Virus record (IMG/VR): IMGVR_UViG_3300047552_000676
Span: 6,116-70,115 of that record
Strand: one strand, 5' to 3'
DNA from: a virus
DNA: 64,000 bases
Part shown: positions 11,037-60,282 of the stretch, one piece after another
How positions within the stretch are numbered: position 1 is the stretch's first letter
How the letters are laid out: each line of letters starts with the position of its first letter
Position numbers and translations under genes: made by a program
The notes under the pieces: model-generated
The model's input: the letters and a program-made list of their open reading frames with translations, nothing else
Databases searched by the model: none
What the model was told of the DNA's origin: nothing

Positions 11037-13393
11037 TAGTTGTTACCTGATTCTGCTGTTGCTAAAAGCTTGACTTCACGTAGCTCTCGTATAACGTTGG
11101 ACACGAGACAGTAAAGAGGGCGTACGATGTTTTCAATCTGCCCTCCGGATGGGGCACCACCTAAGAAAGCACCGATAGCACCAACTGCACAGAAATTCTC
11201 CATGTTGAAAGGCGGGTCTACTTCAAATTCAGCAAACGCTGAAGCGTTAGGCCCGCCGGTATTCTCAACACCCCGCATACGTAAGGAGGGGTCACCCAGA
11301 GTTCGCCCGTTAGGGGTCACCAGAGTGGAAGACTCATGAGCTCTAAGTCTTAACCCCTTCTCATTGAACTCATGCGCAGCCGTACCTCCTGAGTGAACGA
11401 TAGTAACCACCCAGCTTGCATTCGCATGACCAAACGCGGGGAAAACTACAACGTTCCCATGAGAGTTAACGTCTAGGCTTGGATGTATAGCAAAGTCACG
11501 GACGCCATAGCTAACTGAAAGGTACGGAGCAACACCGTTCGCGAGTACGTCTACGTGCTGGTTTATTACAGTTAAGTTGGCACCCTTTTTATTACTACCT
11601 CCAGTACCATTATCTTCCAGATTTTTGGACGTACCTGTAACTAGCAGACTCGTACCTACTTCCGGATTACCATTGATGAAGGCAGTCCAGCGTCGCAGAT
11701 CGATTGGGTCACCTTCGTTATCACCCTCAAGATCGTTGTTTAGTTTGATTCTATTCCAAGGGGTGGAGTAATCTACGATAGTGTTTTCTTTCGCCTGATA
11801 CACCCCTGAAAACGTACCACCTGTTCTTTGGAGAACGTTCGTTAAGTCAGGACCAACTGTATCTGCGTTAGGCGTCCAAATCACCTTGATGTTAGAATAC
11901 TGAATAGACCACGTACCACCAGGATCGGCGACCTCAGCAAAGAATACGTCAGAAGCTGAGAAATCAAGCACTGCATCCTGGTTGACTACAACGTCACCAG
12001 TATCCCGAAGGAGATTCCAATCGTAGCCATTGGAAGCCTGTTCGTAGAGTTTGAACCTGGAAGTGTAGACTCCTTCGCGGAACTCCCGGGTCCAGACTTC
12101 TACTTTATATAGAACTCCATCGTTTATACCAAAGGCTGCATTTGCGGCTGTAGATGCGACACCCGTGGTTTTGTATGGACTATCAGTTCCGGGAAACATA
12201 AACCTACGATCCACCGGTGAAGTACCAGGGGATACTTCTTCCATCTGCACAGAAGGTGCAATCCGCGTTGCATCATCTACGGGAGCTGGTACGCCCCGCG
12301 AGAATAAGACGGCTTCCGCTCTAGGCAAATCGGTCACTGCTTCGTATCTAGTTCCAATAACTATATGACCCGTCTCACCTGAACCAGACCCCTCGAAATA
12401 CCCTGCTGTCTGCATTTGAAATGTCATGTAGCAGTTACTAGGTCTAGTGTTGTATCCGCCAGTATTGGTAGAGAATTGATACAGTGTATCACCGTTCTCG
12501 TTGACTGGGGAGGCGTTCGTCACAGTAAAATCTGCGATGTTAGTGACCGCAGGATAACCGGCAAATCCGTCACCATTGCGCTGTACCGTGCTCAGCTCGT
12601 AGATGATAACTAGTTGACCGACGAGCGGTGCTGTGTCTAGAGGTTGCGCGAGTGTGATTGTATCACCGCTGATGCTCTCCACAGAGCGGACAAACCCACC
12701 TTCCACTTGAATTATGAACTTACCTAGTTCACCACTACCCGCCATCGAAAGGCTTTCGAAGAAAGCTGCTGTGATAGTAGTATCTGTTGAGGCCTCTATC
12801 TCAGGGGCACCGATTCGTACATAGTTGACAGGGTTCCATAGCGTAGCATCGTGCTTGGCTAGAAATACAGATTCTTGATAGTCGTTCGGTTCATGAACGA
12901 TAGCCAGCGGGACTTCAGGGTGGTCACCAGGGGGCTGCAGAGTCATCAGGGTATCCATTTCCAGGACATCCTGTTCACCTACGTTGTCGATTTGAAATAC
13001 TGCTGCGCCCTGTTCCAGCTTGATAAGAACCTTGATGCGTAGGATGTTTGCGTAACCGCTCAGCGTAGAAGGCAACTTGGTTCTAGTAGTTCCAAATGAG
13101 AACCTTCCGAACATCGTGTTGTCTTCCATAAACAACCCGATTTCACCATAATCAAAAGGCCCCGCTTCCGCAGGAACCTCTAGATTTACCTGGACAGTAT
13201 CCGTAGCATAGTAGTTATAAGATACGGCTGTTCCAGTATAAACCGTATCACCAATGATGTCGGTGTCTGTAGCTTGTGCTGGAGTGGCAAAATCATTACC
13301 CAGCTTGAACTGAGTGATGTGAATGTAGGGGCCGGTAGGGGTGGCAACAGAAGCCGCTGCTAAACCCGCATTAGTGATGACTAGGTTGCTCAT
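11036..13393 (-). CDS. Tail fibre protein
   Basis: N-terminal VITNAG...GPFDYGEIGLF tail-collar/fibre domain; follows the baseplate wedge genes. Confidence 0.8.
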   Translation of the reverse strand: MSNLVITNAGLAAASVATPTGPYIHITQFKLGNDFATPAQATDTDIIGDTVYTGTAVSYNYYATDTVQVNLEVPAEAGPFDYGEIGLFMEDNTMFGRFSFGTTRTKLPSTLSGYANILRIKVLIKLEQGAAVFQIDNVGEQDVLEMDTLMTLQPPGDHPEVPLAIVHEPNDYQESVFLAKHDATLWNPVNYVRIGAPEIEASTDTTITAAFFESLSMAGSGELGKFIIQVEGGFVRSVESISGDTITLAQPLDTAPLVGQLVIIYELSTVQRNGDGFAGYPAVTNIADFTVTNASPVNENGDTLYQFSTNTGGYNTRPSNCYMTFQMQTAGYFEGSGSGETGHIVIGTRYEAVTDLPRAEAVLFSRGVPAPVDDATRIAPSVQMEEVSPGTSPVDRRFMFPGTDSPYKTTGVASTAANAAFGINDGVLYKVEVWTREFREGVYTSRFKLYEQASNGYDWNLLRDTGDVVVNQDAVLDFSASDVFFAEVADPGGTWSIQYSNIKVIWTPNADTVGPDLTNVLQRTGGTFSGVYQAKENTIVDYSTPWNRIKLNNDLEGDNEGDPIDLRRWTAFINGNPEVGTSLLVTGTSKNLEDNGTGGSNKKGANLTVINQHVDVLANGVAPYLSVSYGVRDFAIHPSLDVNSHGNVVVFPAFGHANASWVVTIVHSGGTAAHEFNEKGLRLRAHESSTLVTPNGRTLGDPSLRMRGVENTGGPNASAFAEFEVDPPFNMENFCAVGAIGAFLGGAPSGGQIENIVRPLYCLVSNVIRELREVKLLATAESGNN

Positions 13394-46801: not shown

Positions 46802-47395
46802 TCATTTAGCCTTCTTTGGATTACGCTCTGGAAAAGCCTTTAGGTATCGGCGTTTCCATGCGGAGTTTTTGAAAATGGCTTCTTCCCCCGCAAGGAAAGG
46901 TTCCTTCAAAACGTGTATTGCGTATAGACAGGATTCAAACGGCTCTTTAGCGATGGCCTTTTCACCCGGAGGCCAAGGGGCCTTTAGGACAAGCCTAGCA
47001 TAAGTGTACGCGTCCCCAGGAGATTTAGAGATAGCTTCCTCCCCTGCCGGAAAAGGCTTTTTCAGAACGAACATAGCATACTCACATGCGTAGAACGGCT
47101 TTTTAGAGATAGCCGCTTCACCCTTAGGCCAAGGTTTTTTCAAGACAGTCTCTGCATATTCAAGTGCGTGTGCAGCGCTCTTAGCTATAGCATCTTCACC
47201 AGCAGGGAAAGGTTTCTTGAGGACTCTACGGGCGTAGAGTCCTGCGTATTTAGACTGTTTCGCCCAGAGATGTTCAAATTCCTTCAGTTTGCTAGGTCTG
47301 GCTTTGTATTTCTCCCAAACAGTCTCCGGGTAATGAGTTTCCAGCTTTTCATGATGTTTGAGAGTAGATGGTTTAGAATGGAGTTCGTATAGCAT
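46802..47395 (-). CDS. Alpha-helical tandem-repeat protein (about 25-aa repeats)
   Basis: Five copies of YA-x2-VLK-x-P[FW]P-x-GE-x-AI-x-K; start probably MLYELH at 47395. Confidence 0.75.
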   Translation of the reverse strand: MLYELHSKPSTLKHHEKLETHYPETVWEKYKARPSKLKEFEHLWAKQSKYAGLYARRVLKKPFPAGEDAIAKSAAHALEYAETVLKKPWPKGEAAISKKPFYACEYAMFVLKKPFPAGEEAISKSPGDAYTYARLVLKAPWPPGEKAIAKEPFESCLYAIHVLKEPFLAGEEAIFKNSAWKRRYLKAFPERNPKKAK

Positions 47396-50269: not shown

Positions 50270-51142
50270 TTACTTTCTGTTCTCAAAAGGGAAACTCCAC
50301 TTCTTGATAAGAAAGGAAAGCACCTTGCTGTCCACGATCGTACACTGCTTGAGCATTTCCATTTCTTTAGAGTTCATCATCCAAATCCAAGTGGCATCCC
50401 ACCAATAGATAGGCTCAGCGATTTGTACTAGCTTCATAGAGCTAAACTTTTTCGAGACGATTTCAACCACTTCCTGAATAGCCTGCTCTCTAGTGTCAGC
50501 AAAGGCTTTTGAAATCTTCTCTTTGTCCTGCGTCTTCATCGCAGGCATCAAGCCGCGAACATAGTCGTTGGACACCCCAATCACAAACTGTTTGTTCAGG
50601 ATCGGATAATCCGCAAAGTTTGTCGCCAGGATGCCCTTCGCGTTCAGCTTGCGCACTGACAACGGCGGAGTGGTGATAGTAAGAACTGGGACGTACCCAG
50701 CAAAGGTTCCATCGCGTTGAATGCGCGATTGAACCGCGTTCATGTTCTTGTCGTACGTCTTCAGAGTACGCGTGTCAAGATCGTTCGCAATCTTTTCCGG
50801 CAGATCGTTCCCGCGCTTGAGCTCACCGATTGCAATACCAATTGAAAAGCTGAGCTCCTTGTACGCGTCTGCCAGCTCTTCCTTTGCGGCCTTCTGCATC
50901 AGAGTATCTGACTCTAGCCCTTCCCGTACCGAAGTGACGGTGTTCTTGAACTTGTAGATCACCTTCTTCATGCCGGGCAGCATGGTGAGCAAACGCGACA
51001 ACGTTGGTTGGATTGTCTTCCATTCAAAACGCTGCGCGGCCCTGTTCAGGTCTTCCACCAGTTCATAGGCTTCCGACTCATCAAAAGCGACGGGTGTGTC
51101 CAAGTCAGGTGCTTCGTCTGTAGTCGCTACGAGTGATTTCAT
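50270..51142 (-). CDS. Hypothetical protein
   Basis: 290 aa ORF. Confidence 0.6.
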   Translation of the reverse strand: MKSLVATTDEAPDLDTPVAFDESEAYELVEDLNRAAQRFEWKTIQPTLSRLLTMLPGMKKVIYKFKNTVTSVREGLESDTLMQKAAKEELADAYKELSFSIGIAIGELKRGNDLPEKIANDLDTRTLKTYDKNMNAVQSRIQRDGTFAGYVPVLTITTPPLSVRKLNAKGILATNFADYPILNKQFVIGVSNDYVRGLMPAMKTQDKEKISKAFADTREQAIQEVVEIVSKKFSSMKLVQIAEPIYWWDATWIWMMNSKEMEMLKQCTIVDSKVLSFLIKKWSFPFENRK

Positions 51143-51172
51143 GTGGGAACTTTCTGTAAAGTGAAAACGCCA

Positions 51173-51208
51173 ATAGGGCGCTAGACCCTTGGAAGCCTAG
51201 CGCCCTAT
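51173..51208 (-). terminator. Intrinsic terminator-like hairpin after the histone-like gene
   Basis: ATAGGGCGCTAG...CTAGCGCCCTAT inverted repeat. Confidence 0.7.
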
Positions 51209-51217
51209 CACTGATTG

Positions 51218-51616
51218 TCAGTCCACTTCCGGGAAGTCGTCGTCATCGTCCTTGGACTTCTTCGACTTCTTGCCAGAGTCTTTGCCCTTCTTGCCTTTGC
51301 CTTCGGGCTTGATCTTCTTGGCGGGACCCTTCTTGCCTTCCTTCTTGGCCTTCTTGCCTTCCTTCTTTTCCTTCTTGGCCTTCTTTTCCTTGCCTTCCTT
51401 CTTCTCCTTCTTGCCTTCCTTCTTGGCTTTCTTTTCCTTGCCTTCCTTCTTGACCTTCTTGCCTTCCTTCTTTTCCTTCTTTTCCTTCTTGGCCTTCTTG
51501 GGGGCTTCGTCGCCGTCGTCGGACTCGTCCAGCAGGCCCAGCATCTTTTCGTCCAGAGAAGAGACCTTCTCCATCAGCTTGGCACGGATCTTCATCAGCT
51601 TCTGCAGCTTCTTCAT
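51218..51616 (-). CDS. Lysine-rich histone H1-like DNA-binding protein
   Basis: MKKLQK start with GGAG RBS; KKEGK/KKAK repeats flanked by acidic stretches. Confidence 0.8.
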   Translation of the reverse strand: MKKLQKLMKIRAKLMEKVSSLDEKMLGLLDESDDGDEAPKKAKKEKKEKKEGKKVKKEGKEKKAKKEGKKEKKEGKEKKAKKEKKEGKKAKKEGKKGPAKKIKPEGKGKKGKDSGKKSKKSKDDDDDFPEVD

Positions 51617-51633
51617 AACTATCACTCCATGGA

Positions 51634-51708
51634 ATGAGAGTGGCACGCTTGAAAAGTACCTTGATCGAGGCGCGTGCCACTCTCATGAGAAGGAGAGAGG
51701 CCTCGATC
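51634..51708 (-). promoter_or_regulatory. 5' leader H-type pseudoknot before the histone-like gene
   Basis: Perfect 9-bp stem (51700-51708/51663-51671) interleaved with perfect 15-bp stem (51672-51686/51634-51648). Confidence 0.65.
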
Positions 51709-51722
51709 GTGGGTTCTAAAAC

Positions 51723-51974
51723 TTAGGCCGCCAGACGCCGATTGCATTCAGCGATGTGGGCATCGAGGAAGCGATTCTGCCGCTGCAAGAGGCGCATCTT
51801 GCGGTTGATGAGCGTTTGCTCTTCCATCGGGTTGGAGCAGTTCTCCAAGGCTTCCGAAAGCGCGTCGTTCAGCTTGTTGTACGCGTCGTTCCGACGGCTG
51901 AACTTCTTCATGTAATCCAGGGTTTCTTGGACAGAGGCCAGAACGTTCTTCGTCTTTTGCAGAGTGGTTTGCAT
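51723..51974 (-). CDS. Hypothetical early protein
   Basis: 83 aa, GC3-rich, directly after a sigma70 promoter. Confidence 0.6.
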   Translation of the reverse strand: MQTTLQKTKNVLASVQETLDYMKKFSRRNDAYNKLNDALSEALENCSNPMEEQTLINRKMRLLQRQNRFLDAHIAECNRRLAA

Positions 51975-52022
51975 ACAAGCCTTGAGGTTGGTGGTTTTAC
52001 ACTAGGGCTGCGCCCTGGATAA

Positions 52023-52051
52023 ATTATACCATAAATCAAAACAAAATGCAA
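52023..52051 (-). promoter_or_regulatory. Sigma70-type promoter
   Basis: TTGCAT-17-TATAAT with extended TG. Confidence 0.85.
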
Positions 52052-52060
52052 GGACTATTT

Positions 52061-52445
52061 GGGAGGGGCTAGTGTCTCCCCCTCTGCTCACACCCGGGAT
52101 CGCTTTTGCGATCTTGCCTGTGAGTTCGAGCAGTGCGTCGCTCTTAAACGTTTCTCGCTTACCCGGCGACGAGGCATCACAGGTTCGGAGACCAGTGAAC
52201 CGTTTCGCTGTTACGAGGCCACCCGTGAACTCCGTGGCGGCACTGGAGGCAGGTCATTAAATTTCATCTTAGACGTCAGACCTTTAACGTGACTCATGCC
52301 AGTCTGGAGTTGCTCCACGTATCGGCACTACCTTGTTCAGCAACCAAACAACGAACTGAAAAGCTGCTGAAGTAAGCTCACTGCAATTGAGTCTAAGACT
52401 ATCTGCATTTATCGCGCTCGGTCGGCACTCAGTATGCAGCGGACT
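52061..52445 (-). ncRNA. Large structured ncRNA of unknown class (about 385 nt)
   Basis: No credible ORF; more than 10 helices and putative pseudoknots; starts right after tRNA-Val. Confidence 0.65.
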
Positions 52446-52451
52446 GAAAAC

Positions 52452-52525
52452 TGGTAGCCCCTACAAGAATCGAACTTGTGTATCCGCCGTGTAAAAGCGA
52501 TGTTCTACCATTGAACTAAGGGGCT
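52452..52525 (-). tRNA. tRNA-Val(TAC)
   Basis: Cloverleaf, loop TTTACAC, encoded CCA. Confidence 0.85.
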
Positions 52526-52531
52526 GAAAAT

Positions 52532-52608
52532 TGATGGGAAGGGCTGGATTCAAACCAGCGACGCAAGCCTTATAATGGACTCCGCTCTATCAACTGAGCT
52601 ACCCTCCC
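52532..52608 (-). tRNA. Aberrant tRNA or tRNA pseudogene with 8-nt anticodon loop (CATTATAA)
   Basis: Intact acceptor, D and T stems, but T-loop TTTGAAT, 3' end TCA and 8-nt anticodon loop. Confidence 0.6.
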
Positions 52609-52614
52609 GAAATC

Positions 52615-52688
52615 TGGAGCGGGAAACGGGAATCGAACCCGTGTCATTAGCTTGGAAGGCTAAGGTTCTACCATTAAACTACTCCCGC
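52615..52688 (-). tRNA. tRNA-Gly(TCC)
   Basis: Canonical cloverleaf, T73, CCA. Confidence 0.95.
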
Positions 52689-52693
52689 AAGAA

Positions 52694-53125
52694 GTGGTCG
52701 GTTCTTACACAGACCCCCAGCAAGACTTGCGTCTAACTAGAGGTGACCGACCTTGCGAGGGCCTTCACTTCACTGGATCGGTATCACCAGAAAGATCCGG
52801 GGCTCCCCCGCTCACTGGCTCAGGCACGCTGAGCGAACAGACTGTCGTTGGCAGTTGCTTGCTTTGCTTGGTATTTCATCTTGCTTCGTTTCCTCCACAA
52901 GACGAGGGCTCCGCTTGCCCTAGCAGTTCATCTCAGTGTTCTCATCCCCGTCGAAACCAGGACTGGCCCACCTAAGGATACTCAAGGTCGCTACTGACAT
53001 AAAAGTATCATACTTTGTTAGGCGTATGAACTCAGGAATATCCTTAGGTGGACCAGGCGAGAGTCGAACTCGCGTCCGGAAACAATTACACTTCGATTCT
53101 GGCAGGATTCACGCCCTGCCTACTG
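52694..53125 (-). ncRNA. ssrA: Circularly permuted (two-piece) tmRNA, tag (A)ANDSLFAQRA
   Basis: Acceptor piece ends GCGAG-TTCGACT-CTCGC-CTGGTCC-A at 53049. A hairpin intervening segment spans 52970-53048. The coding piece starts GGGCCAG..TTTCGACGGGG at 52969, giving a G3-U70 pair. Tag at 52820-52852. Outer boundaries approximate. Confidence 0.9.
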
Positions 53126-53187
53126 CCATCTGAACTTATTTACAATGTTTTCAAGTGACTACTGCTGTGACTGCAGAAGTCAGCACC

Positions 53188-53379
53188 TTGATTCAAGAAA
53201 AGATTACTCTAAGGATTAGAGTCTTGACTAGAGCATTAATTCTTCGTGGCATCGGACAACAGACCTCCGTCGTGGATAGGCTGTCTAGCTCACCTATCCC
53301 TCGTAAGCGTCTGTGCCTACTTTATCCGTTGACTATCTCGTTGGCCTAACGATTTGAGAGTAATCTTATCTCGAATCAA
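53188..53379 (-). ncRNA. Rod-shaped ncRNA of about 190 nt (6S-like topology)
   Basis: About 22-bp closing stem, large central bubble, nested stems CGGATA/TGTCCG, ACAGAC/GTCTGT, GGATAGG/CCTATCC. Confidence 0.55.
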
Positions 53380-53381
53380 CA

Positions 53382-53458
53382 TGGCGCGACCAGAGGGAGT
53401 CGAACCCCCGACCCACATCTTAGAAGGATGTTGCTCTATCCGGCTGAGCTATGGTCGC
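53382..53458 (-). tRNA. tRNA-Arg(TCT)
   Basis: Canonical cloverleaf, CCA. Confidence 0.95.
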
Positions 53459-53463
53459 AAGAT

Positions 53464-53550
53464 TGGTGCGGGTGAGAGGACTCGAACCTCCACGCTATTT
53501 CTAGCGCCAGACTCTAAATCTAGTGCGTCTACCAATTTCGCCACACCCGC
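53464..53550 (-). tRNA. tRNA-Leu(TAG)
   Basis: Type II cloverleaf, CCA. Confidence 0.95.
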
Positions 53551-53567
53551 AAATTTTGCGAAGCACT

Positions 53568-54155
53568 CTAAGAGTTTTTAAGACTCAGAGGCTTCAAGCT
53601 TATAACTGCAAAGGTTCTTAGATGACCTTCGTCAGAACCCCACAGTTCTGAACTAAACTCTTTCACATCATCCATGGACGACAGCGGTAGTAGCCGAACA
53701 GGAGTGCTGCGTCGGTCGAGGTAATAGGCGTATCTATCTGGGCGATCAAAGCTCTTCCTCAGCATCGACTGCCAAAAGGTTTTGCCTAGATCTGTCTGCT
53801 GAGTATCAGAGATTAGAGCGGTGTATTTTGGTAGTAGAATCTCATTGAAAACGTGCTCTGCAAACCCCGAAGCCTTGGGTTCTGAGTAGTACCGCCATAA
53901 AAGAACTTGACGACCTAATCGAAAACCATTTGCACGAACTTCCTTATGGCGTACCAAATACACCACTTTCTCGTCAACCACCAGAGCCACATATCCAATG
54001 TTCTTGTCACCGAAGGAATAAACCTTTTCGCCTTGGTATAACTCCAAGGGGGTGGGGGCGCTCTTACCTTTCTTATAGATTAGAGAGAGGACGTACAGAA
54101 TAAGGCTATCGCCTAAATTAGGAATTATCTTAGTGGCCTCTATTTCATTCGACAT
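53568..54155 (-). CDS. GNAT-like hypothetical protein (paralog of 56369..57040)
   Basis: ISDTQQTDLGKTFW motif. Confidence 0.55.
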   Translation of the reverse strand: MSNEIEATKIIPNLGDSLILYVLSLIYKKGKSAPTPLELYQGEKVYSFGDKNIGYVALVVDEKVVYLVRHKEVRANGFRLGRQVLLWRYYSEPKASGFAEHVFNEILLPKYTALISDTQQTDLGKTFWQSMLRKSFDRPDRYAYYLDRRSTPVRLLPLSSMDDVKEFSSELWGSDEGHLRTFAVISLKPLSLKNS

Positions 54156-54165
54156 GAACTAATCC

Positions 54166-54492
54166 TTAGTCTTTAGAAGGATTCTTTGGCAGACCAGTGT
54201 TTGTGAACTCACCCCAATTCATTAACAGTGTTGTCCCCGACATATACTCTTTGTGATTCAGGCTTCGATAAGTGCCACGATTTAGACCTTCACCACGTAC
54301 TGCAATGATGAACGGAACAGAGTTTGTCTTCTGGGTCATTCTGCGAAGAGAACCAACTGAGATTTGCTTTTTGCGGAGTTGTCCATCGTATGGACCGCCT
54401 TGAAAGCGAAGGGAAACTACTACGTCAGTCACAGTGTTATGTACGAACTGGATCAGGGAACTTAAACTTTTCTTGCAGGATCTGCACCACAC
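54166..54492 (-). CDS. Hypothetical protein
   Basis: FQGGPYDGQ motif; start uncertain. Confidence 0.5.
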   Translation of the reverse strand: MWCRSCKKSLSSLIQFVHNTVTDVVVSLRFQGGPYDGQLRKKQISVGSLRRMTQKTNSVPFIIAVRGEGLNRGTYRSLNHKEYMSGTTLLMNWGEFTNTGLPKNPSKD

Positions 54493-54742
54493 GATCGATC
54501 AGCGGTCGATCAGCGGTCCAGAACTCTATCATTAAGTAGGTAGGGTCCACCGACTGGAAGAACAAATGAGACCTACGAAACTCGTTGCTGAACTCCGAGT
54601 TCGACCATTGCGTTTGGCTATTGCAGAACGCTATGACCTTCTCGTTGAAGTTAGTCAACGACTCCTCTGTAGAGTGAAAGGTCAGACAGACACCCTTCAT
54701 AGGCATTGACCCGAGACGGATCGCTACGTTGTCGAAATTCAT
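54437..54742 (-). CDS. Hypothetical protein
   Basis: MNFDNV start with upstream GGGG. Confidence 0.5.
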   Translation of the reverse strand: MNFDNVAIRLGSMPMKGVCLTFHSTEESLTNFNEKVIAFCNSQTQWSNSEFSNEFRRSHLFFQSVDPTYLMIEFWTADRPLIDRVVQILQEKFKFPDPVRT

Positions 54743-54766
54743 TTTTGAAATCCCCATTAGATTTGA

Positions 54767-54790
54767 TGGTGCGAGCGGCGGAAATCGAAC
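54767..54790 (-). pseudogene. 3' fragment of a tRNA (T-loop, acceptor strand and CCA only)
   Basis: GTTCGATTTCCGCCGCTCGCACCA with no 5' half. Confidence 0.7.
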
Positions 54791-54791
54791 A

Positions 54792-54876
54792 TGGTGGGCG
54801 GTGAGAGACTCGAACTCTCACACCTTTCGGCGTCTGAGCTTAAATCAGATGTGTCTACCAATTTCACCAACCGCCC
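54792..54876 (-). tRNA. tRNA-Leu(TAA)
   Basis: Type II cloverleaf, CCA. Confidence 0.93.
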
Positions 54877-54909
54877 TATTGTTAACGACTACGTCTAGAC
54901 TCGCGACGA

Positions 54910-55113
54910 TTATTCTAAGACACGGATCTCAACTGAAGCTACTCGACATCCAGACGACTTCAACTTTGACCATTCTTTTGCGCCATAGAAGTTCGCGGCC
55001 CACTCTTCTACTTGTTCCTTACTACTCCGCGTAGAGTAAGGTAGAACTTGATTATAGTCGTTCACGATAGCCGCCGCCAACCTAGTGATAGGTTGCTCTT
55101 TGGGGTTTTTCAT
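54910..55113 (-). CDS. Hypothetical protein
   Basis: 67 aa ORF between tRNAs. Confidence 0.5.
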   Translation of the reverse strand: MKNPKEQPITRLAAAIVNDYNQVLPYSTRSSKEQVEEWAANFYGAKEWSKLKSSGCRVASVEIRVLE

Positions 55114-55149
55114 TCATGAATCATGCAGTGTGAATTCATTGTTAGTAAG

Positions 55150-55235
55150 TGGTCGGAGTGATAGGATTCGAACCTACGGGGCTTTCGCACTGCGTCCCAA
55201 ACGCAGCCCGCTACCTGACTACGGTCTACACTCCG
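55150..55235 (-). tRNA. tRNA-Pro(TGG) with atypical long variable region
   Basis: CGGAGTG acceptor, CTGCG-TTTGGGA-CGCAG anticodon arm, 12-nt variable region; 86 nt. Confidence 0.85.
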
Positions 55236-55246
55236 ACTGAACTCTA

Positions 55247-55432
55247 TTAGTCCCAGTAATCCGGCTTTGCCCGCTCACGAGGTTCCAACCTATCGAGTTC
55301 AGATTGATTACCGCGAACCAGAGAACGGATAAACATATTGAACTCTCGCCGCAACGGGCGAATCTCAAACAGATTGGTAAACCAAGAGGGTGCACCACGA
55401 CGGTGCTTGGGACGAAACTTTGACTTGCTCAT
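55247..55432 (-). CDS. Hypothetical basic protein
   Basis: AGGAG RBS, PSWFTN motif. Confidence 0.55.
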   Translation of the reverse strand: MSKSKFRPKHRRGAPSWFTNLFEIRPLRREFNMFIRSLVRGNQSELDRLEPRERAKPDYWD

Positions 55433-55502
55433 GTGATGCTCCTAGGTATTTAGCCTAAAGCCTCACGACCTCCATCACGCAAGGTGTTCTCCTTTGATCA
55501 GG

Positions 55503-55868
55503 TTACGCTGGCGTCCGAGAGTAATCGAACACGGAGTTCGGAATTCTCCGATAGCCATCGGAAGTCAAGGCATAAACCCTAACCTCTGTTTTAGCCTGTC
55601 GGACTATTTGTTCAAAGTCCATGATGTAAAAGGATTGCGACCCAAACATCGTGTCCAAAGCCTGGAACTGAACTTTGTAGTTATCTTTCACTTGGTAACG
55701 ATGCTCGACGATTTCGCATTCAACAATCTCTTCAGGCTGAGACGATGAAGTAAAGGCAATGCCTGGAATGATGCCCACGAACTCCAGGCGCTGCATCGGT
55801 ATGAAGAACCGTAGATTCTTGACTCCATACTCGGACACTAGGTTGGCTAGGCGCATGTCACTCTCCAA
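55503..55868 (-). CDS. Hypothetical protein
   Basis: 121 aa ORF. Confidence 0.55.
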   Translation of the reverse strand: MESDMRLANLVSEYGVKNLRFFIPMQRLEFVGIIPGIAFTSSSQPEEIVECEIVEHRYQVKDNYKVQFQALDTMFGSQSFYIMDFEQIVRQAKTEVRVYALTSDGYRRIPNSVFDYSRTPA

Positions 55869-56253
55869 AGAAATGCTTCGAACGTTCCTGGATAACCTTC
55901 AAGCTGCCTTCGCTGAGGGCAGTCAGCACATGACCATGTATAAAGACATCGCCTCGATAATGCATGCCGTCACATTCTACTACAGACCGTCTTCCGATCT
56001 CGACGGCGTTGGTGAATTCTTTCAGCGTAGAGAAAGTGAGATCGTACAAAGGCGTACCATCGCAGTCACGCGTGTGTTTGCACACATAGAGGCGGAGCCC
56101 GTTGTCTTCGTAGTAAACTTCCCGATGGATGTCGTACTCTAGGATCTCCACCAGAGCACCAATGGGTATGCTGTGCTTCACCTGCAGATTTTCTTGCCGA
56201 CCGGTCAAGCCTGTCTTGGGATTGACGATGTCTGAAACGAACACTACGCTCAT
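55858..56253 (-). CDS. Hypothetical protein
   Basis: HSIPIGALVE...RDCDGTPLY motif. Confidence 0.6.
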   Translation of the reverse strand: MSVVFVSDIVNPKTGLTGRQENLQVKHSIPIGALVEILEYDIHREVYYEDNGLRLYVCKHTRDCDGTPLYDLTFSTLKEFTNAVEIGRRSVVECDGMHYRGDVFIHGHVLTALSEGSLKVIQERSKHFFGE

Positions 56254-56282
56254 ATCAAGTTCCTTTAACTTGGTGGTGAAAA

Positions 56283-56359
56283 TGGTGGGACCAACAGGGC
56301 TCGAACCTGTGACCGATCGATTATGAGTCGACTGCTCTAACCAACTGAGCTATGGTCCC
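56283..56359 (-). tRNA. tRNA-Ile2(CAT), lysidine type (Met not excluded)
   Basis: GGGACCA acceptor, CGA-CTCATAA-TCG anticodon arm typical of Ile2. Confidence 0.85.
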
Positions 56360-56368
56360 AGAAGACGA

Positions 56369-57040
56369 CTAAGACTTCCGCTTATGGGCGATAGCGAATC
56401 GCCAATTCAGTCCTGAATCGTCTTTGTTAACTTCGTAAGTCCAGTACTTCTGGAGCGAAGTATCCTTTGCTAGGGGAACTACCTCGGTCACTTTCACTTT
56501 GGACCCAGTCTCAGAGAAGTGACAAGCATAGGCGCTGTACCCACGAATCTTGGCTTCGTGAAGCCTACGCTCCCAGAAAGCTTTTCCAGCTTGGCTCTGG
56601 ACGGAGTCAGAGAACCAGTTCTTTCTCTGGGAAAGTTTCCAGAACACATCTGCTACGAAAGTCTGACCTAGAGTTTCTAGCGCCCTCGCGCTACGCCAGA
56701 CTGACCCCTGATATATCGAAAAGGCGTTAAACTGCGAAACGATTTGCGAGTCTACCGCCGAGTCGAAAGTAAACCTCAGAGGGTTTAGGTGCATTAAATA
56801 GTCTAGCTCATTGAGCTGAGTATCTACTGCGTAGAGCCAGAGTCGGTTGTTGGTATCGATGGATACTCGAAATTCAACCCACGAGGCTTGTGGCTGAGGC
56901 GGGGACTGAATGACTTTACTGTTTCTCGTCTGTTCGACGATAAACCTGTGTTGAGATTGCGGGGTCTTCACAATCTCAGGGATGTAATCGGAGGCCCTCA
57001 CCATAGACATGGCGACAAGAGGGGACTTAGAAGTCGTCAA
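56369..57040 (-). CDS. GNAT-like hypothetical protein (paralog of 53568..54155)
   Basis: FSDSVQSQAGKAFW motif. Confidence 0.55.
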   Translation of the reverse strand: MTTSKSPLVAMSMVRASDYIPEIVKTPQSQHRFIVEQTRNSKVIQSPPQPQASWVEFRVSIDTNNRLWLYAVDTQLNELDYLMHLNPLRFTFDSAVDSQIVSQFNAFSIYQGSVWRSARALETLGQTFVADVFWKLSQRKNWFSDSVQSQAGKAFWERRLHEAKIRGYSAYACHFSETGSKVKVTEVVPLAKDTSLQKYWTYEVNKDDSGLNWRFAIAHKRKS

Positions 57041-57282
57041 GGTAGAAGCCTTCTACAGAAGGGATAGAATCCTTCTACAGAAGGTTTCGGGCGACCACTG
57101 CCAGAGCAGCACGCTAGACAAGGACCTACTGCGGTGTAGTCGAGGACTGGATCTCCGTAGACCGGAGCGTACCTCTTTCGTGTCCCGTTGCACTCGTCGC
57201 ACCCTGGAGTGTACTTCTTGCGAACGAAACTATTTACAGCTTTCACTTCAGCTTCAACTTGCTCACGAGTCATCTTGTTCAC
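57037..57282 (-). CDS. Small zinc-ribbon protein
   Basis: CDECNG...CLAC. Confidence 0.5.
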   Translation of the reverse strand: MNKMTREQVEAEVKAVNSFVRKKYTPGCDECNGTRKRYAPVYGDPVLDYTAVGPCLACCSGSGRPKPSVEGFYPFCRRLLP

Positions 57283-57310
57283 TTTTACCTCGACTCCATA
57301 GCTAAGGGGG

Positions 57311-57507
57311 TCACAATGCTAGTTGATGCACTCTACCATGTTTCCTAGAGGGTCCAGCTCTAGGCTGCCATACTACCCAGGTAGATAGGTACGCACCGAG
57401 ATTTTACTTCTTAGTACAGCCACGTCTTGGACACGTGACATAACTCCTGACCGGGAAGTAGGACTGACTCGTTGCGATTTTCGCTCGTGCATCAACTAGC
57501 ACTATGA
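57311..57507 (-). ncRNA. Multibranched ncRNA of about 200 nt, unknown class
   Basis: 21-bp closing stem (57311-57331/57487-57507) enclosing several hairpins; just 3' of tRNA-Ser. Confidence 0.6.
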
Positions 57508-57523
57508 TAAATCAACTAGAGGT

Positions 57524-57613
57524 TGGCGGAAACGGTGAGATTCGAACTCACGAACGAGTTACCTCGTTATCGGTTTTCAAGACCGAGGCATTAAACCACT
57601 CTGCCACGTTTCC
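57524..57613 (-). tRNA. tRNA-Ser(TGA)
   Basis: Type II cloverleaf, G73, CCA. Confidence 0.95.
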
Positions 57614-57709
57614 GTTTTCTACCGCGGTTTCCAACCCTCTCCGAGGTAGGTGTAAAGTGCAAACTGTGCCATGTTTACTTCAGGGTTAGGTTTTACTTTG
57701 CGGTAGTTT

Positions 57710-57738
57710 ATTGTACCACAGATCCCACAAAAATGCAA
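57710..57738 (-). promoter_or_regulatory. Sigma70-type promoter driving the RNA island
   Basis: TTGCAT-17-TACAAT with extended TG; flanks nearly identical to the promoter at 52023-52051. Confidence 0.85.
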
Positions 57739-57748
57739 GGAGTATTTC

Positions 57749-57822
57749 TGGTGCCCTGTGACTGAATCGAACAGTCGGGGGCGGCTTACAAAACCGCTCG
57801 TTTACCACTAACGGAACAGGGC
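57749..57822 (-). tRNA. tRNA-Thr(TGT)
   Basis: Cloverleaf, loop TTTGTAA, CCA. Confidence 0.88.
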
Positions 57823-57856
57823 AGGAAGAGGTTCTGTCCTCTACCCTCGGAGCCTT

Positions 57857-58348
57857 CTAAAATTGTAGTGCAGCGGCGGAAGGCACCATGATGTCGCTAA
57901 ACTTTACAGGACCCTTTCGATTGAGAGTACTGAACATACGCCAGTTCATCTCATGAAGGAAATCCCGGCCAAGAAGCGTATCAATCACTTCTTTGTTCAA
58001 ACACTTTGACATCTCGTCAACGACTGTCTGGTAGACCGGCGACGCTGGATTAACACCCCGATAGATGTGATGCACTTGTTGCTTTGTCAACCTGTCTGGG
58101 TGCTTGATGATGAACCGATACAGCAACAAATCCTTTATGGCTTGGATGCTGCGAGGCTCGATCAGAGCAGGCGTCAGCGTGATCTCCACCATGTCGACTA
58201 CGTCAGTGCGGTCGCTAAGAAAGATCACGCGCTTCCATTTTCCAAAATGAGGCAAGTGCATAAGAACAAGCTCACCTTTGAACAGGCGATTCGCGTGTGT
58301 CACACGATGCCACGTGAGCGGAGGACACTTGGGTTCGATTCTGTTCAT
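57857..58348 (-). CDS. Hypothetical protein
   Basis: 163 aa, overlaps the gyrA stop. Confidence 0.55.
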   Translation of the reverse strand: MNRIEPKCPPLTWHRVTHANRLFKGELVLMHLPHFGKWKRVIFLSDRTDVVDMVEITLTPALIEPRSIQAIKDLLLYRFIIKHPDRLTKQQVHHIYRGVNPASPVYQTVVDEMSKCLNKEVIDTLLGRDFLHEMNWRMFSTLNRKGPVKFSDIMVPSAAALQF

Positions 58349-60282
58349 AGCTTTGCGAAGCCGTCTAGCTGAGATAGCAAGAAAGAAGTTGGTGACTTCT
58401 TGCGCTTCTCAAGCGTAGCCTTGTTTGCTTCGACCTCCTTCTTCTTAGCTTCCAACTCTTTCTGATCCAGCTTACGCAGACTGATGATGGGACGCGAAAG
58501 AACGTACTTGGCTTCCTCCGGAGTACATTTACACTTCTTTGCATACGCCTGATAGACTTCGTCCGTGGACAGCTTGGCGTTCTTCAACAGAGTGACAATG
58601 AAGTCGATCAGATTGACCGCTTGGATAAGCAGATCCAGCCTACGAATCTCCCGGTTGTCCTCTTTGATCCAGTACTCACAGGCTTTACGCTCAAGAGCAA
58701 CTCGCCACACTACCCAGCGGTTGATCATGTCGGTCACAGAGGCTGCAAAGGCTTTCGCTGCACCAAGACCATCCTTGTCGACATATCGCTCAGTGAACGT
58801 CAACACGTAGGACTCTGACGCTGTGAGCACCTTACTGATTGCCTTGACTACTGCGTCTTGCTTGGCAAAGGAAACGCTTTTCTCCAATTGGATAAAAATC
58901 TTGCCGTACTTGTCTTCCTTACCAGAATCGTCACGGGCAGACTTCACTCCCTTGATGGATAGAAGGGCCTCCAACAGCTTGGGGATTTCGGTATCGCGAG
59001 CAAAGGTTTCAACAACGACAGTGGCCTTGTCTTGGTTGACAGACATACCTGACTTGATCACTACCCTACCCTGAGGCGTACTGAAAAGAGCCTTGCGGGC
59101 TTCCTTTTCATCCTTCGTTACAGGCGGAGCTTCCATCCCACCATAAGTTGAGCGAATCTTCAAAAGCTTTTCCAAAGCTTTCGGTTCCGCTGGAGAAACG
59201 AAAGCAATCTTTAGGGCTTCGATCAAAGATTTGCGCGTGAAGATAGGTACGTTAGTAGTGATACCCGGAGCCATACCAAAGCGACCTGTCAGCAAAGCAA
59301 GAGGCAGCAGTGCAGGTAGAACCAGTGGCTCTTTGGTGGAACCATCATAGTTTGGTACGAACTCGATGACCGGAGTGTAGAACTTGTTGAACACAATCTC
59401 GTCAGCAAACTTGCTAAGACGAACCTCGGTGTACCGCATTGCTGCGGCACCCTTTTCGGAGAGCGTTCCCCAATTACCTTCACCCTTGAACATCGGAGTG
59501 TAGCTCCGCGTGTTGGTCATCTTCACCATTGCTTCGTAGCAACTGGAGTTGTGAGCTACGATCAGGGTCCGTTGCCCGTCGCTACGGAGTCCCGTAGAGA
59601 TAAGCATGTTTTCGTAGCCATCTACCGTGAAGTCGTACATCGGCTTGGCTGACGTCTGCCTATTTATTTCGATCTTCGTCACAGATACTACAGGGGCTGG
59701 GATTCTGGTTAGTCCCCCGAACTCTGGCTTAAGTCCACATCCAATAAGATGAGTACCCACCTGTAGACTTTCTGTCTTTAACCAACCATTTTCTGCAGTG
59801 AGAAATTGATGATTGGAAGTAGCCTCCACTTTACTACCATCCGATAGATGGATTTTATACGTTTCGCTAGCTTGCTGCCCAACTCTCCACGAGTGAGCAA
59901 ACGCGTGAACGTAAGCGTTAGTGGACTTGTCATACGCTAAGATCTTTCGTGGCCCTCTACCAACTAGCGAAGAAATCTTTACGAAATTACCAGACAGCAG
60001 ATAGACCTCAGTATCTCCATCCAGGCAATCTCCGTGCGGATGGAATCTACCGAGGGTCTCACCGACTACACGGGCTGACTTCACAGGCTTGCCGTTGTGG
60101 CGTAGACCTAGACCATGGGCAGCCCACAGCAGTCTACGATGCACCGGAGCCATACCATCTGCGTAGTCTGGAAAGGCTCTATCCTCGATAGTAGCCATCG
60201 CGTACTCAAAGTAATTCTTCTTTGCAAAAGGTAGGAGGCCTACCTCTTTAACCCACCCCGTGGATTTGGAATCTTTTGTCAT
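58345..60282 (-). CDS. gyrA: Type IIA topoisomerase subunit A (GyrA/ParC-like, no CTD) containing an intein
   Basis: DGMAPVHRR, KSARVVG, FHPHGD, GNWG, AAMRYTE, PNYDG. Confidence 0.93.
   Translation of the reverse strand: MTKDSKSTGWVKEVGLLPFAKKNYFEYAMATIEDRAFPDYADGMAPVHRRLLWAAHGLGLRHNGKPVKSARVVGETLGRFHPHGDCLDGDTEVYLLSGNFVKISSLVGRGPRKILAYDKSTNAYVHAFAHSWRVGQQASETYKIHLSDGSKVEATSNHQFLTAENGWLKTESLQVGTHLIGCGLKPEFGGLTRIPAPVVSVTKIEINRQTSAKPMYDFTVDGYENMLISTGLRSDGQRTLIVAHNSSCYEAMVKMTNTRSYTPMFKGEGNWGTLSEKGAAAMRYTEVRLSKFADEIVFNKFYTPVIEFVPNYDGSTKEPLVLPALLPLALLTGRFGMAPGITTNVPIFTRKSLIEALKIAFVSPAEPKALEKLLKIRSTYGGMEAPPVTKDEKEARKALFSTPQGRVVIKSGMSVNQDKATVVVETFARDTEIPKLLEALLSIKGVKSARDDSGKEDKYGKIFIQLEKSVSFAKQDAVVKAISKVLTASESYVLTFTERYVDKDGLGAAKAFAASVTDMINRWVVWRVALERKACEYWIKEDNREIRRLDLLIQAVNLIDFIVTLLKNAKLSTDEVYQAYAKKCKCTPEEAKYVLSRPIISLRKLDQKELEAKKKEVEANKATLEKRKKSPTSFLLSQLDGFAKL
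59548..60027 (-). mobile_element. Mini-intein (160 aa, no endonuclease) in gyrA
   Basis: HPHGD|CLDGDT...ATSNH...YDFTV...VAHN|SS. Confidence 0.92.

Follow-up and report, generated by a model that had tools for sequence, protein, structure and literature searches.

Positions 52061-57822 of a 64,000-nucleotide (nt) stretch of viral DNA, hereafter the window (bases 6116-70115 of the 70,115-base IMG/VR virus record IMGVR_UViG_3300047552_000676), hold a dense block of ten tRNA genes, a permuted transfer-messenger RNA (tmRNA), nine open reading frames (ORFs) and three ORF-free stretches, here called RNA-1, RNA-2 and RNA-3, all on the minus strand. With a modest preference, slightly better than an even chance, we read it as one polycistronic tRNA/tmRNA/mRNA block whose transcript would be cut at tRNA boundaries and probably also in long helices by an RNase III type of activity, with the stem-closed RNA-1 and RNA-2 as likely cis-acting elements or spacers. 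RNA-1 and RNA-2 are each closed by a helix of 21-25 base pairs (bp) that begins close behind a tRNA, and the helix around the intervening segment of the tmRNA has the same size.

The tRNAs and the tmRNA span 52452-57822, with ARAGORN and Rfam in agreement. Read in the direction of transcription, the block opens with tRNA-Thr(UGU) (57749-57822; Rfam tRNA score 52.2 bits), 135 nt that contain a promoter-like site (P1), tRNA-Ser(UGA) (57524-57613), 16 nt, RNA-1 (57311-57507), 28 nt, ORF81 and ORF223. There follow 9 nt, tRNA-Met(CAU) (56283-56359), 29 nt, ORF131, ORF121, a 70-nt gap, ORF61, 11 nt and tRNA-Pro(UGG) (55150-55235), then 36 nt, ORF67, 33 nt, tRNA-Leu(UAA) (54792-54876), 34 nt, ORF106, ORF108 and ORF195. 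After 17 nt come tRNA-Leu(UAG) and tRNA-Arg(UCU), 5 nt apart (53382-53550), 2 nt, RNA-2 (53188-53379) and the tmRNA (52694-53187). The last part consists of ~5-40 nt, tRNA-Gly(UCC), 6 nt, tRNA-Ile(UAU), 9 nt and tRNA-Val(UAC) (the three together at 52452-52688), the 396-nt RNA-3 (52056-52451) and a second promoter-like site (P2). The 3'-terminal CCA is encoded in 9/10 tRNAs, the exception being tRNA-Ile with UCA; it ends at 57524 in tRNA-Ser, at 53382 in tRNA-Arg and at 52452 in tRNA-Val. In its tight one-strand array of tRNA genes, interspersed with segments that are neither tRNA nor ORF, the block has the layout of a T4-type cluster.

Neighbours in the block are 0-36 nt apart, except for the one 70-nt spacer between two ORFs. 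The original prediction had called the region an RNA island. Packing of tRNAs, tmRNA and ORF-free stretches is indeed seen, but ORFs make up ~56% of 52061-57822, against 14% for tRNAs, 8% for the tmRNA and 13.5% for the three ORF-free stretches (summed from the ORF list). The distances from an ORF end to the following tRNA are 9, 11, 17 and 33 nt, and those from a tRNA to the next ORF start are 29, 36 and 34 nt. Since ORFs abut tRNAs as closely as the RNA segments do in this dense block, the tRNA adjacency of the latter is not special.

P1 (57710-57741) reads TCCTTGCATTTT...TGTGGTACAAT, that is, a weak -35 element, a 17-nt spacer and an extended -10 element, and would serve as a promoter; P2, its second copy (52023-52054), lies ahead of an 83-amino-acid (aa) ORF at 51723-51974. 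Across the window the pattern TTGCAT-N17-TAYAAT has exactly two matches, both minus-strand (57738-57710 and 52051-52023), where 0.08 would be expected by chance. The 12-mer upstream of the pattern is identical in P1 and P2, and no third copy occurs in the whole 70-kb record. The earlier claim that two near-identical promoter-like sites bracket most of the block was thus borne out; tRNA-Thr sits upstream of P1. From 57700 down to 52056, the minus strand has a helix within the tmRNA as its sole terminator-like site. The block would be transcribed from P1, and by read-through from upstream, into long precursors with no internal terminator. Given one strand, P1, no internal terminator and tiny spacers, RNase P would sever such a transcript at the 5' ends of the tRNAs and other cuts would fall close to their 3' ends, which makes the proposed release of the segments by tRNA processing plausible, although their closeness to tRNAs is no more than packing gives. 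Between P1 and tRNA-Ser there is also a 17-codon frame, MAQFALYTYLGEGWKPR* (57650-57702, minus strand), with a weak ribosome-binding site; it could encode a leader peptide or nothing.

The original prediction had three RNAs beginning 2-16 nt after a tRNA CCA. This applies to two of them. The 197-nt RNA-1 starts 16 nt after the CCA of tRNA-Ser, and its first arm (57507-57487, 21 nt) pairs with 57331-57311 in a 21-bp helix that includes 2 G-U pairs. The predicted pairing extends outward, from 57523-57519 (ACCUC, directly following the CCA of tRNA-Ser) to 57291-57287 (GAGGU), the Shine-Dalgarno sequence of ORF81, which sits 5 nt before the GTG start of that frame. The 192-nt RNA-2 starts 2 nt after the CCA of tRNA-Arg; its arms, 53379-53355 and 53212-53188, form a helix of 23-25 bp with 1 G-U and 1 U-U. 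RNA-3 directly follows tRNA-Val, has no ORF of at least 36 aa on that strand and no terminator-like site, and offers no definable boundaries.

Folded with their flanks as single sequences, which holds for all fold predictions here, RNA-1, RNA-2 and RNA-3 gave z-scores of -4.77, -4.11 and -1.62 respectively; for RNA-3, 5/100 shuffles folded as well. Cut exactly, RNA-1 reached -77.8 kcal/mol (z -6.46) on the minus strand and -68.4 kcal/mol (z -3.89) on the plus strand, the transcribed strand being better by 9.4 kcal/mol. When the closing arms were removed, the interiors of RNA-1 and RNA-2 gave z-scores of -0.45 and -0.42 (100 shuffles each). The interiors thus fold no better than shuffles, and all the fold signal therefore lies in the closing helices.

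A scan of the window for stems of at least 16 nt, at least 85% paired and with 60-400 nt between the arms returned four, three of which fall in this 5.8-kb block: 23 nt in RNA-2 (I1), 21 nt around the tmRNA intervening segment and including the acceptor stem (I2), and 21 nt in RNA-1 (I3). An inverted repeat at 46822-47071 has a fold z of -0.77. By eye, 5/6 of the non-Watson-Crick positions in I1-I3 are G-U on the minus strand; longer versions of the arms add two C-U, at the arm ends. If a stem cassette is defined by a helix of at least 17 bp beginning no more than ~20 nt from a tRNA 3' end and enclosing ~100-400 nt, RNA-1 (21-bp helix, 16 nt behind the CCA) and RNA-2 (23-25 bp, 2 nt behind it) both qualify.

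Other phage contigs, too, carry similar stems beside tRNAs. We counted 47 long stems in 134 non-duplicate sources (1.158 Mb, 327 tRNA or tmRNA calls); 19 of them had a tRNA or tmRNA gene no more than 30 nt away, as against 6.4 +/- 2.2 on random placement in the same locus. Without the five stems inside tmRNA genes, the figure was 14/42 against 5.7 +/- 2.0, the random maximum being 15 in 2000 trials. In locus L040 a stem (12823-12950) spans the interval between the CCA of tRNA-Glu and a point 10 nt short of tRNA-Cys; in L112 another (12817-12690) begins at the CCA of tRNA-Tyr and stops 4 nt short of tRNA-Leu, and stems in L101 flank whole tRNAs. Stems that close tmRNA intervening segments in other phage contigs measure 21-25 nt. 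An AU-rich stem sequence starting with discriminator plus CCA (ACCAUA; ACCAUAUAAAA...) is found in L062 and L112 and, more loosely, in L040, and is absent from the stems of the window. In the related phage contig L012, a 21-bp stem (11179-11311) surrounds a class II tRNA-like core with D-loop-like GCCAGAGUGG and T-arm-like GAGUUCGAAUCUC; this core, which ARAGORN does not call, sits 27 nt before tRNA-Arg.

The third helix of the block belongs to a two-piece tmRNA, recognized by ARAGORN and by RF04321 (60.8 bits, cut-off 47, model positions 1-213 of 213). RF01850, the betaproteobacterial tmRNA, scored below its gathering threshold (60.9 against 84 bits) and covered the tRNA-like domain only (model 66-178 of 331). 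As in permuted tmRNAs, the 5' acceptor strand comes after the T-arm and the 3' acceptor strand. The acceptor piece runs to 53047 and ends in ACC, so that CCA is not fully encoded; the intervening segment (53046-52970, 77 nt) is closed by a helix of 21-23 bp; and the coding piece starts at G 52969. The acceptor stem pairs CTGGTCC (53056-50) with GGGCCAG (52969-63), its third pair being G3-U70, and the tag frame ANDSLFAQRA* lies at 52852-52820 (ARAGORN). This tag ends in QRA, while most other tmRNAs called by ARAGORN in phage contigs end in LAA or AA-type sequences. Two-piece tmRNAs account for 53/133 unique phage tmRNAs, mostly aquatic, according to PMC9004378, and transcripts of permuted tmRNAs are described as cut by tRNA-processing enzymes in PMC11915505.

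Both limits of this tmRNA are predictions, 53187 or 53138 at the 5' side and 52729 to 52694 at the 3' side. Its coding piece had been said to end about 5 nt before tRNA-Gly; ARAGORN ends the gene 40 nt before that tRNA and the last predicted helix ends ~7 nt before it, so the adjacency holds as a prediction only. A possible 11-bp pairing joins 53187-53177, just after the 3' arm of RNA-2, to the tmRNA tail (4 + 7 bp, a bulge, 2 G-U). Synteny across relatives had been proposed as a check. Among 21 tmRNA calls, all from loci that have at least two tRNAs, a tRNA on the same strand and at most 60 nt downstream was found in the window and in one dubious call (L085), that is, in 1 dubious case among the 20 others, and a tRNA within 100 nt upstream in 7/21. 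L010 and L011 carry a related tmRNA, with tag ANDSEFRAAA, that is not followed by a tRNA. A tRNA directly after the tmRNA is therefore not conserved, nor is it the usual 3' boundary of phage tmRNAs.

From established tRNA maturation, RNase P would cut at each tRNA 5' end of the precursor. Because 9/10 tRNAs encode CCA, their 3' ends would arise from endonucleolytic cleavage within the trailer and subsequent trimming by exonucleases. Such processing would give every neighbour, mRNA or RNA, an end, and the punctuation would therefore be a by-product of packing and not a device for noncoding RNAs (ncRNAs). The 21-25-bp helices may be sites of double-strand-specific, RNase III-type cutting or stems that protect ends, like rRNA processing stems. 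RNA-1 probably works in cis, as modelled from its extended helix, which would pair the tRNA-Ser trailer with the Shine-Dalgarno sequence of ORF81; trimming of the trailer would then free the ribosome-binding site. RNA-2 is probably a separator between tRNA-Arg and the acceptor piece of the tmRNA, whose likely 5' end abuts the 3' arm of RNA-2. The stem-closed segments are more likely such cis-acting or spacer modules than RNAs for taking over the host.

Several points weigh against this reading. We infer co-transcription and every cut. A promoter scan omits P1 and P2 because their -35 element matches at 3/6 positions only. RNA-2, cut exactly, folds alike on both strands (z -4.18 and -4.07); z-scores near -4 also arise in coding sequence here, an 828-nt coding stretch giving -4.03 and 200-nt coding windows across the boundary of ORF81 and ORF223 reaching -4 to -5. 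The tmRNA tail can alternatively fold on itself. In the stems of other phages, mismatches on the tRNA strand are G-U in 10 cases, A-C in 4 and other in 8. Among the 14 stems near tRNAs are two from the window itself and another, L112 10728-10840, that probably closes a tmRNA intervening segment; moreover, the loci used for this enrichment were chosen by a tmRNA-like motif, and the null model ignores that non-coding DNA is richer in stems. An RNase III gene was not found in the record, which is ~29% of the genome. Finally, orphan interiors that show no excess structure fit spacers, yet functional RNAs that are unstructured may be compatible with them too.

The original prediction went further, and had RNA-1, a 6S-like RNA-2 and RNA-3 act in trans, freed by host tRNA nucleases and, together with the tmRNA and the tRNAs, taking over translation and transcription. 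In its favour, the stretches are ORF-free and oriented like the tRNAs, and closing helices could protect the ends of stable RNAs. The T4 tRNA region yields two small stable RNAs of undefined role, RNAC and RNAD, also called species 1 and 2 (PMC3014915; Northern validation in PMC9697503), and GOLLD and ROOL RNAs adjoin tRNAs in phages, with co-transcription suggested (PMC5737381). Searches gave the segments no family and no relatives. With Rfam at E up to 10 over 50500-59500, none of the 22 matches placed a family on RNA-1, RNA-2 or RNA-3, nor was 6S, GOLLD or ROOL among them. The size and closing stem of RNA-2 fit the ~180-200-nt rod of 6S RNA, but the covariance models of 6S (RF00013 and related) did not match it at E up to 10, and its minimum-energy fold, which as a single-sequence prediction can only be suggestive, is multibranched and not a rod with a central bubble; the 6S-like reading is unsupported. 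Blastn against 50,697 phage records returned one 25-nt match for RNA-3 (E 0.4) and none for RNA-1 or RNA-2. With nhmmer, the three RNAs and two gaps were run against 12 and then 128 loci (L129-L138 left out), and nothing appeared at E <= 1 except one match at E 0.25. Single-sequence covariance models of the two stem-closed RNAs (R1, R2) found no match in 100/138 sources and 4 whole related records. Neither model matches the other RNA, and a shared RNA-1/RNA-2 family, suggested by the motif AACGAG-NN-AGTC, was rejected on that ground. Exact 18-mers in IMG/VR gave none for RNA-1 and one chance match for RNA-2, in L138, where there is no model match and no tRNA. Strain variation in the source sample was nil, the contigs of this phage in runs X1 and X2 showing 0 differences and the listed variants all falling on tRNAs of other organisms. 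Together with interiors that fold like shuffles and the weak z of RNA-3, the lack of families and relatives speaks against functional ncRNA cargo; the take-over system is unsupported, and we think it very improbable.

Another explanation operates at the level of DNA: the block would be a mosaic built by recombination at tRNA genes as exchange points, and the segments flanked by inverted repeats would be mobile or recombining cassettes resembling miniature inverted-repeat transposable elements. The orphan segments with their 21-25-nt terminal inverted repeats would suit it, as would the equal folding of RNA-2 on both strands and a gene order around the 195-aa protein, the tmRNA and the tRNAs that differs in every relative. 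A joint of the expected kind is seen in L010 and L011. L010 2640-3157 and L011 2620-3137 are identical from the T-arm of tRNA-Pro(CGG), through a ~437-nt ORF-free stretch, to tRNA-Arg, and differ upstream of that T-arm, so that L011 keeps only the 3' half of the tRNA; tRNA genes therefore also look like recombination joints. (The ~437-nt stretch shows no fold beyond that of shuffles, z +1.39, and its two copies are so alike that they offer no covariation.) However, no direct repeats flank RNA-1 or RNA-2, nhmmer found no second copies of the segments in the 70-kb record, family searches of the window proteins revealed no transposase nearby, and the arm mismatches are mostly G-U on the transcribed strand. 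On balance we hold this explanation to be decidedly unlikely. There is likewise very little chance, in our judgement, that the repeats and the stretches lacking ORFs are there incidentally, as spacers or leaders with no processing role. No conservation could be shown, the interiors are unstructured and z-scores of like size occur in coding DNA of the window, all of which would agree with it. Against this stand three helices of 21-25 bp in 5.8 kb with one elsewhere in 64 kb, the enrichment of similar stems beside tRNAs in other phage contigs, and the fact that the helix closing the tmRNA intervening segment, an established processing element, is among the three. A bolder proposal is that helix-closed segments abutting tRNAs form a widespread, undescribed module of phage tRNA arrays, in which the stem cuts or protects ends and the interior is an exchangeable payload, the interiors of RNA-1 and RNA-2 being released as stable RNAs; this we regard as unlikely. 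That the payload could be a tRNA, a tRNA mimic, a tmRNA spacer or an RNA of another kind, with RNA-1 and RNA-2 as sequence-orphan members, is equally tentative. No description of helix-closed segments in phage tRNA arrays was found in the literature, supplementary files being outside that search.

The ORFs of the block gave few clues. Outside support was obtained for 2/9 only: ORF195 (195 aa, 53568-54155), with 55 homologues, and its paralogue ORF223 (223 aa, 56369-57040; phrog_1349, E 3.6e-05). Both are predicted to share a GNAT-like fold. The predicted structure is confident (pLDDT 85.8) and its best matches are almost all GNAT-type acetyltransferases, albeit weak ones (Foldseek best E 2e-3; VIA Z 5.4-7.8; top row rmsd 3.3 A over 127 residues); a conserved G-F-A stands at the place expected for the acetyl-CoA loop. 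ORF81 (81 aa, 57037-57282) has a CxxC...CxxC arrangement and no family was found for it. The putative ORF131, ORF121 and ORF61 (131, 121 and 61 aa, within 55247-56253) had no family at the Pfam cut-off; the putative ORF67 (67 aa, 54910-55113) comes from the ORF list, and ORF106 and ORF108 (106 and 108 aa) lie with ORF195 within 53568-54757. Two copies of the palindrome CCTTCTGTAGAAGG, separated by 11 nt, lie where ORF81 ends and ORF223 begins (~57045-57095, minus strand); this could be a protein-binding site or a hairpin for translational coupling. A 16-nt inverted repeat overlaps ORF67, and its 3' arm ends at the first base of tRNA-Leu(UAA); the fold of this Pro-Leu gap has a z of -0.80. The 86-nt tRNA-Pro(UGG), called by ARAGORN with a low Rfam score (31.9 bits), has a long extra arm. 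L011, a related contig, likewise has a tRNA-Pro(UGG) call of 87 nt (1984-2070), and given this counterpart the odd shape may be a kept feature. Elsewhere in the window, a candidate gene-free gap of 828 nt (814-1641) was rejected, being part of a 607-aa open frame that continues past the window edge.

The block belongs to an uncultured freshwater (lake) jumbo phage of a new, isolated lineage. The record, ~29% complete by CheckV, was present in two DNA runs only, both from one freshwater sample, and in no RNA run, and the G+C content of the window is 44-51%. Its topoisomerase/gyrase A-like protein shares at most 36% identity with proteins of jumbo phages of ~190-230 kb. The gene for this protein (58345-60282, minus strand) lies just upstream of the block; relatives match it in two pieces covering 74-77% of the query, and from the sequence the unmatched middle looks like an intein-type insert. 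No close relative of the record was found in the phage collection or IMG/VR, and megablast of 52000-58000 against phages gave tRNA-Met matches only (1% cover, 129 records). Single-protein scans of IMG/VR with three window proteins and a scan of genome contigs with protein P0002 also found no relatives. The closest homologues of the 195-aa protein, P0002-P0005, are 48-52% identical to it and are encoded on contigs of up to 112 kb. The search with the 195-aa protein yielded 5 IMG/VR and 7 metagenome loci at 40-49% identity; tRNAs lie within ~1 kb of its gene in L003, L004/L005, L010, L011 and L012, in a different order each time. Pfam searches of this partial 70-kb record gave no match to RNase III, SmpB or CCA-adding enzyme.

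If the long helices are indeed processing signals, they would offer a straightforward way to interpret the many gene-free gaps of phage tRNA arrays, and RNase III and RNase P mutants would be a handle for finding phage small RNAs that survive. Useful in themselves are the three equal-sized helices, the predicted occlusion of a ribosome-binding site by a tRNA trailer, and a phage tmRNA tag that ends in QRA instead of LAA.

By its layout, the block is an ordinary arrangement, much like the classic T4 tRNA region, in a new phage lineage. In T4, tRNA-cluster precursors are processed by RNase P, and RNase III cuts species 1 RNA; our literature search on T4 species I and RNase III found no paper. 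As in T4, non-tRNA segments lie among phage tRNA genes. Unlike T4, the block also holds a two-piece tmRNA and nine ORFs, and its candidate RNAs are closed by 21-25-bp helices. These helices recall the intervening segment of permuted tmRNAs (RF04321, RF01850), which is likewise closed by 21-25 bp and is removed in maturation by tRNA-processing enzymes (PMC11915505). The stems of RNA-1 and RNA-2, however, carry no acceptor stem or T-arm, and their interiors measure 146-155 nt as against 52-77 nt. GOLLD and ROOL differ from the segments in being large (ROOL averages 581 nt), conserved and ornate, whereas the segments are of ~195 nt, orphan, and show no excess interior structure. In mitochondria, RNase P and a 3' nuclease cut out the tRNAs that separate genes and thereby free the flanking RNAs. 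The nucleases would be different ones here, and with CCA encoded in 9/10 tRNAs the 3' cut is more likely to fall in the trailer and to be followed by trimming. In rRNA operons, processing stems are cut by RNase III and spacer tRNAs by RNase P. The block would be alike in that flanking long-range helices would mark predicted cuts in a polycistronic precursor containing tRNAs, and unlike in that there the enclosed RNA (16S, 23S) is the product, while here the interior may be either product or waste.

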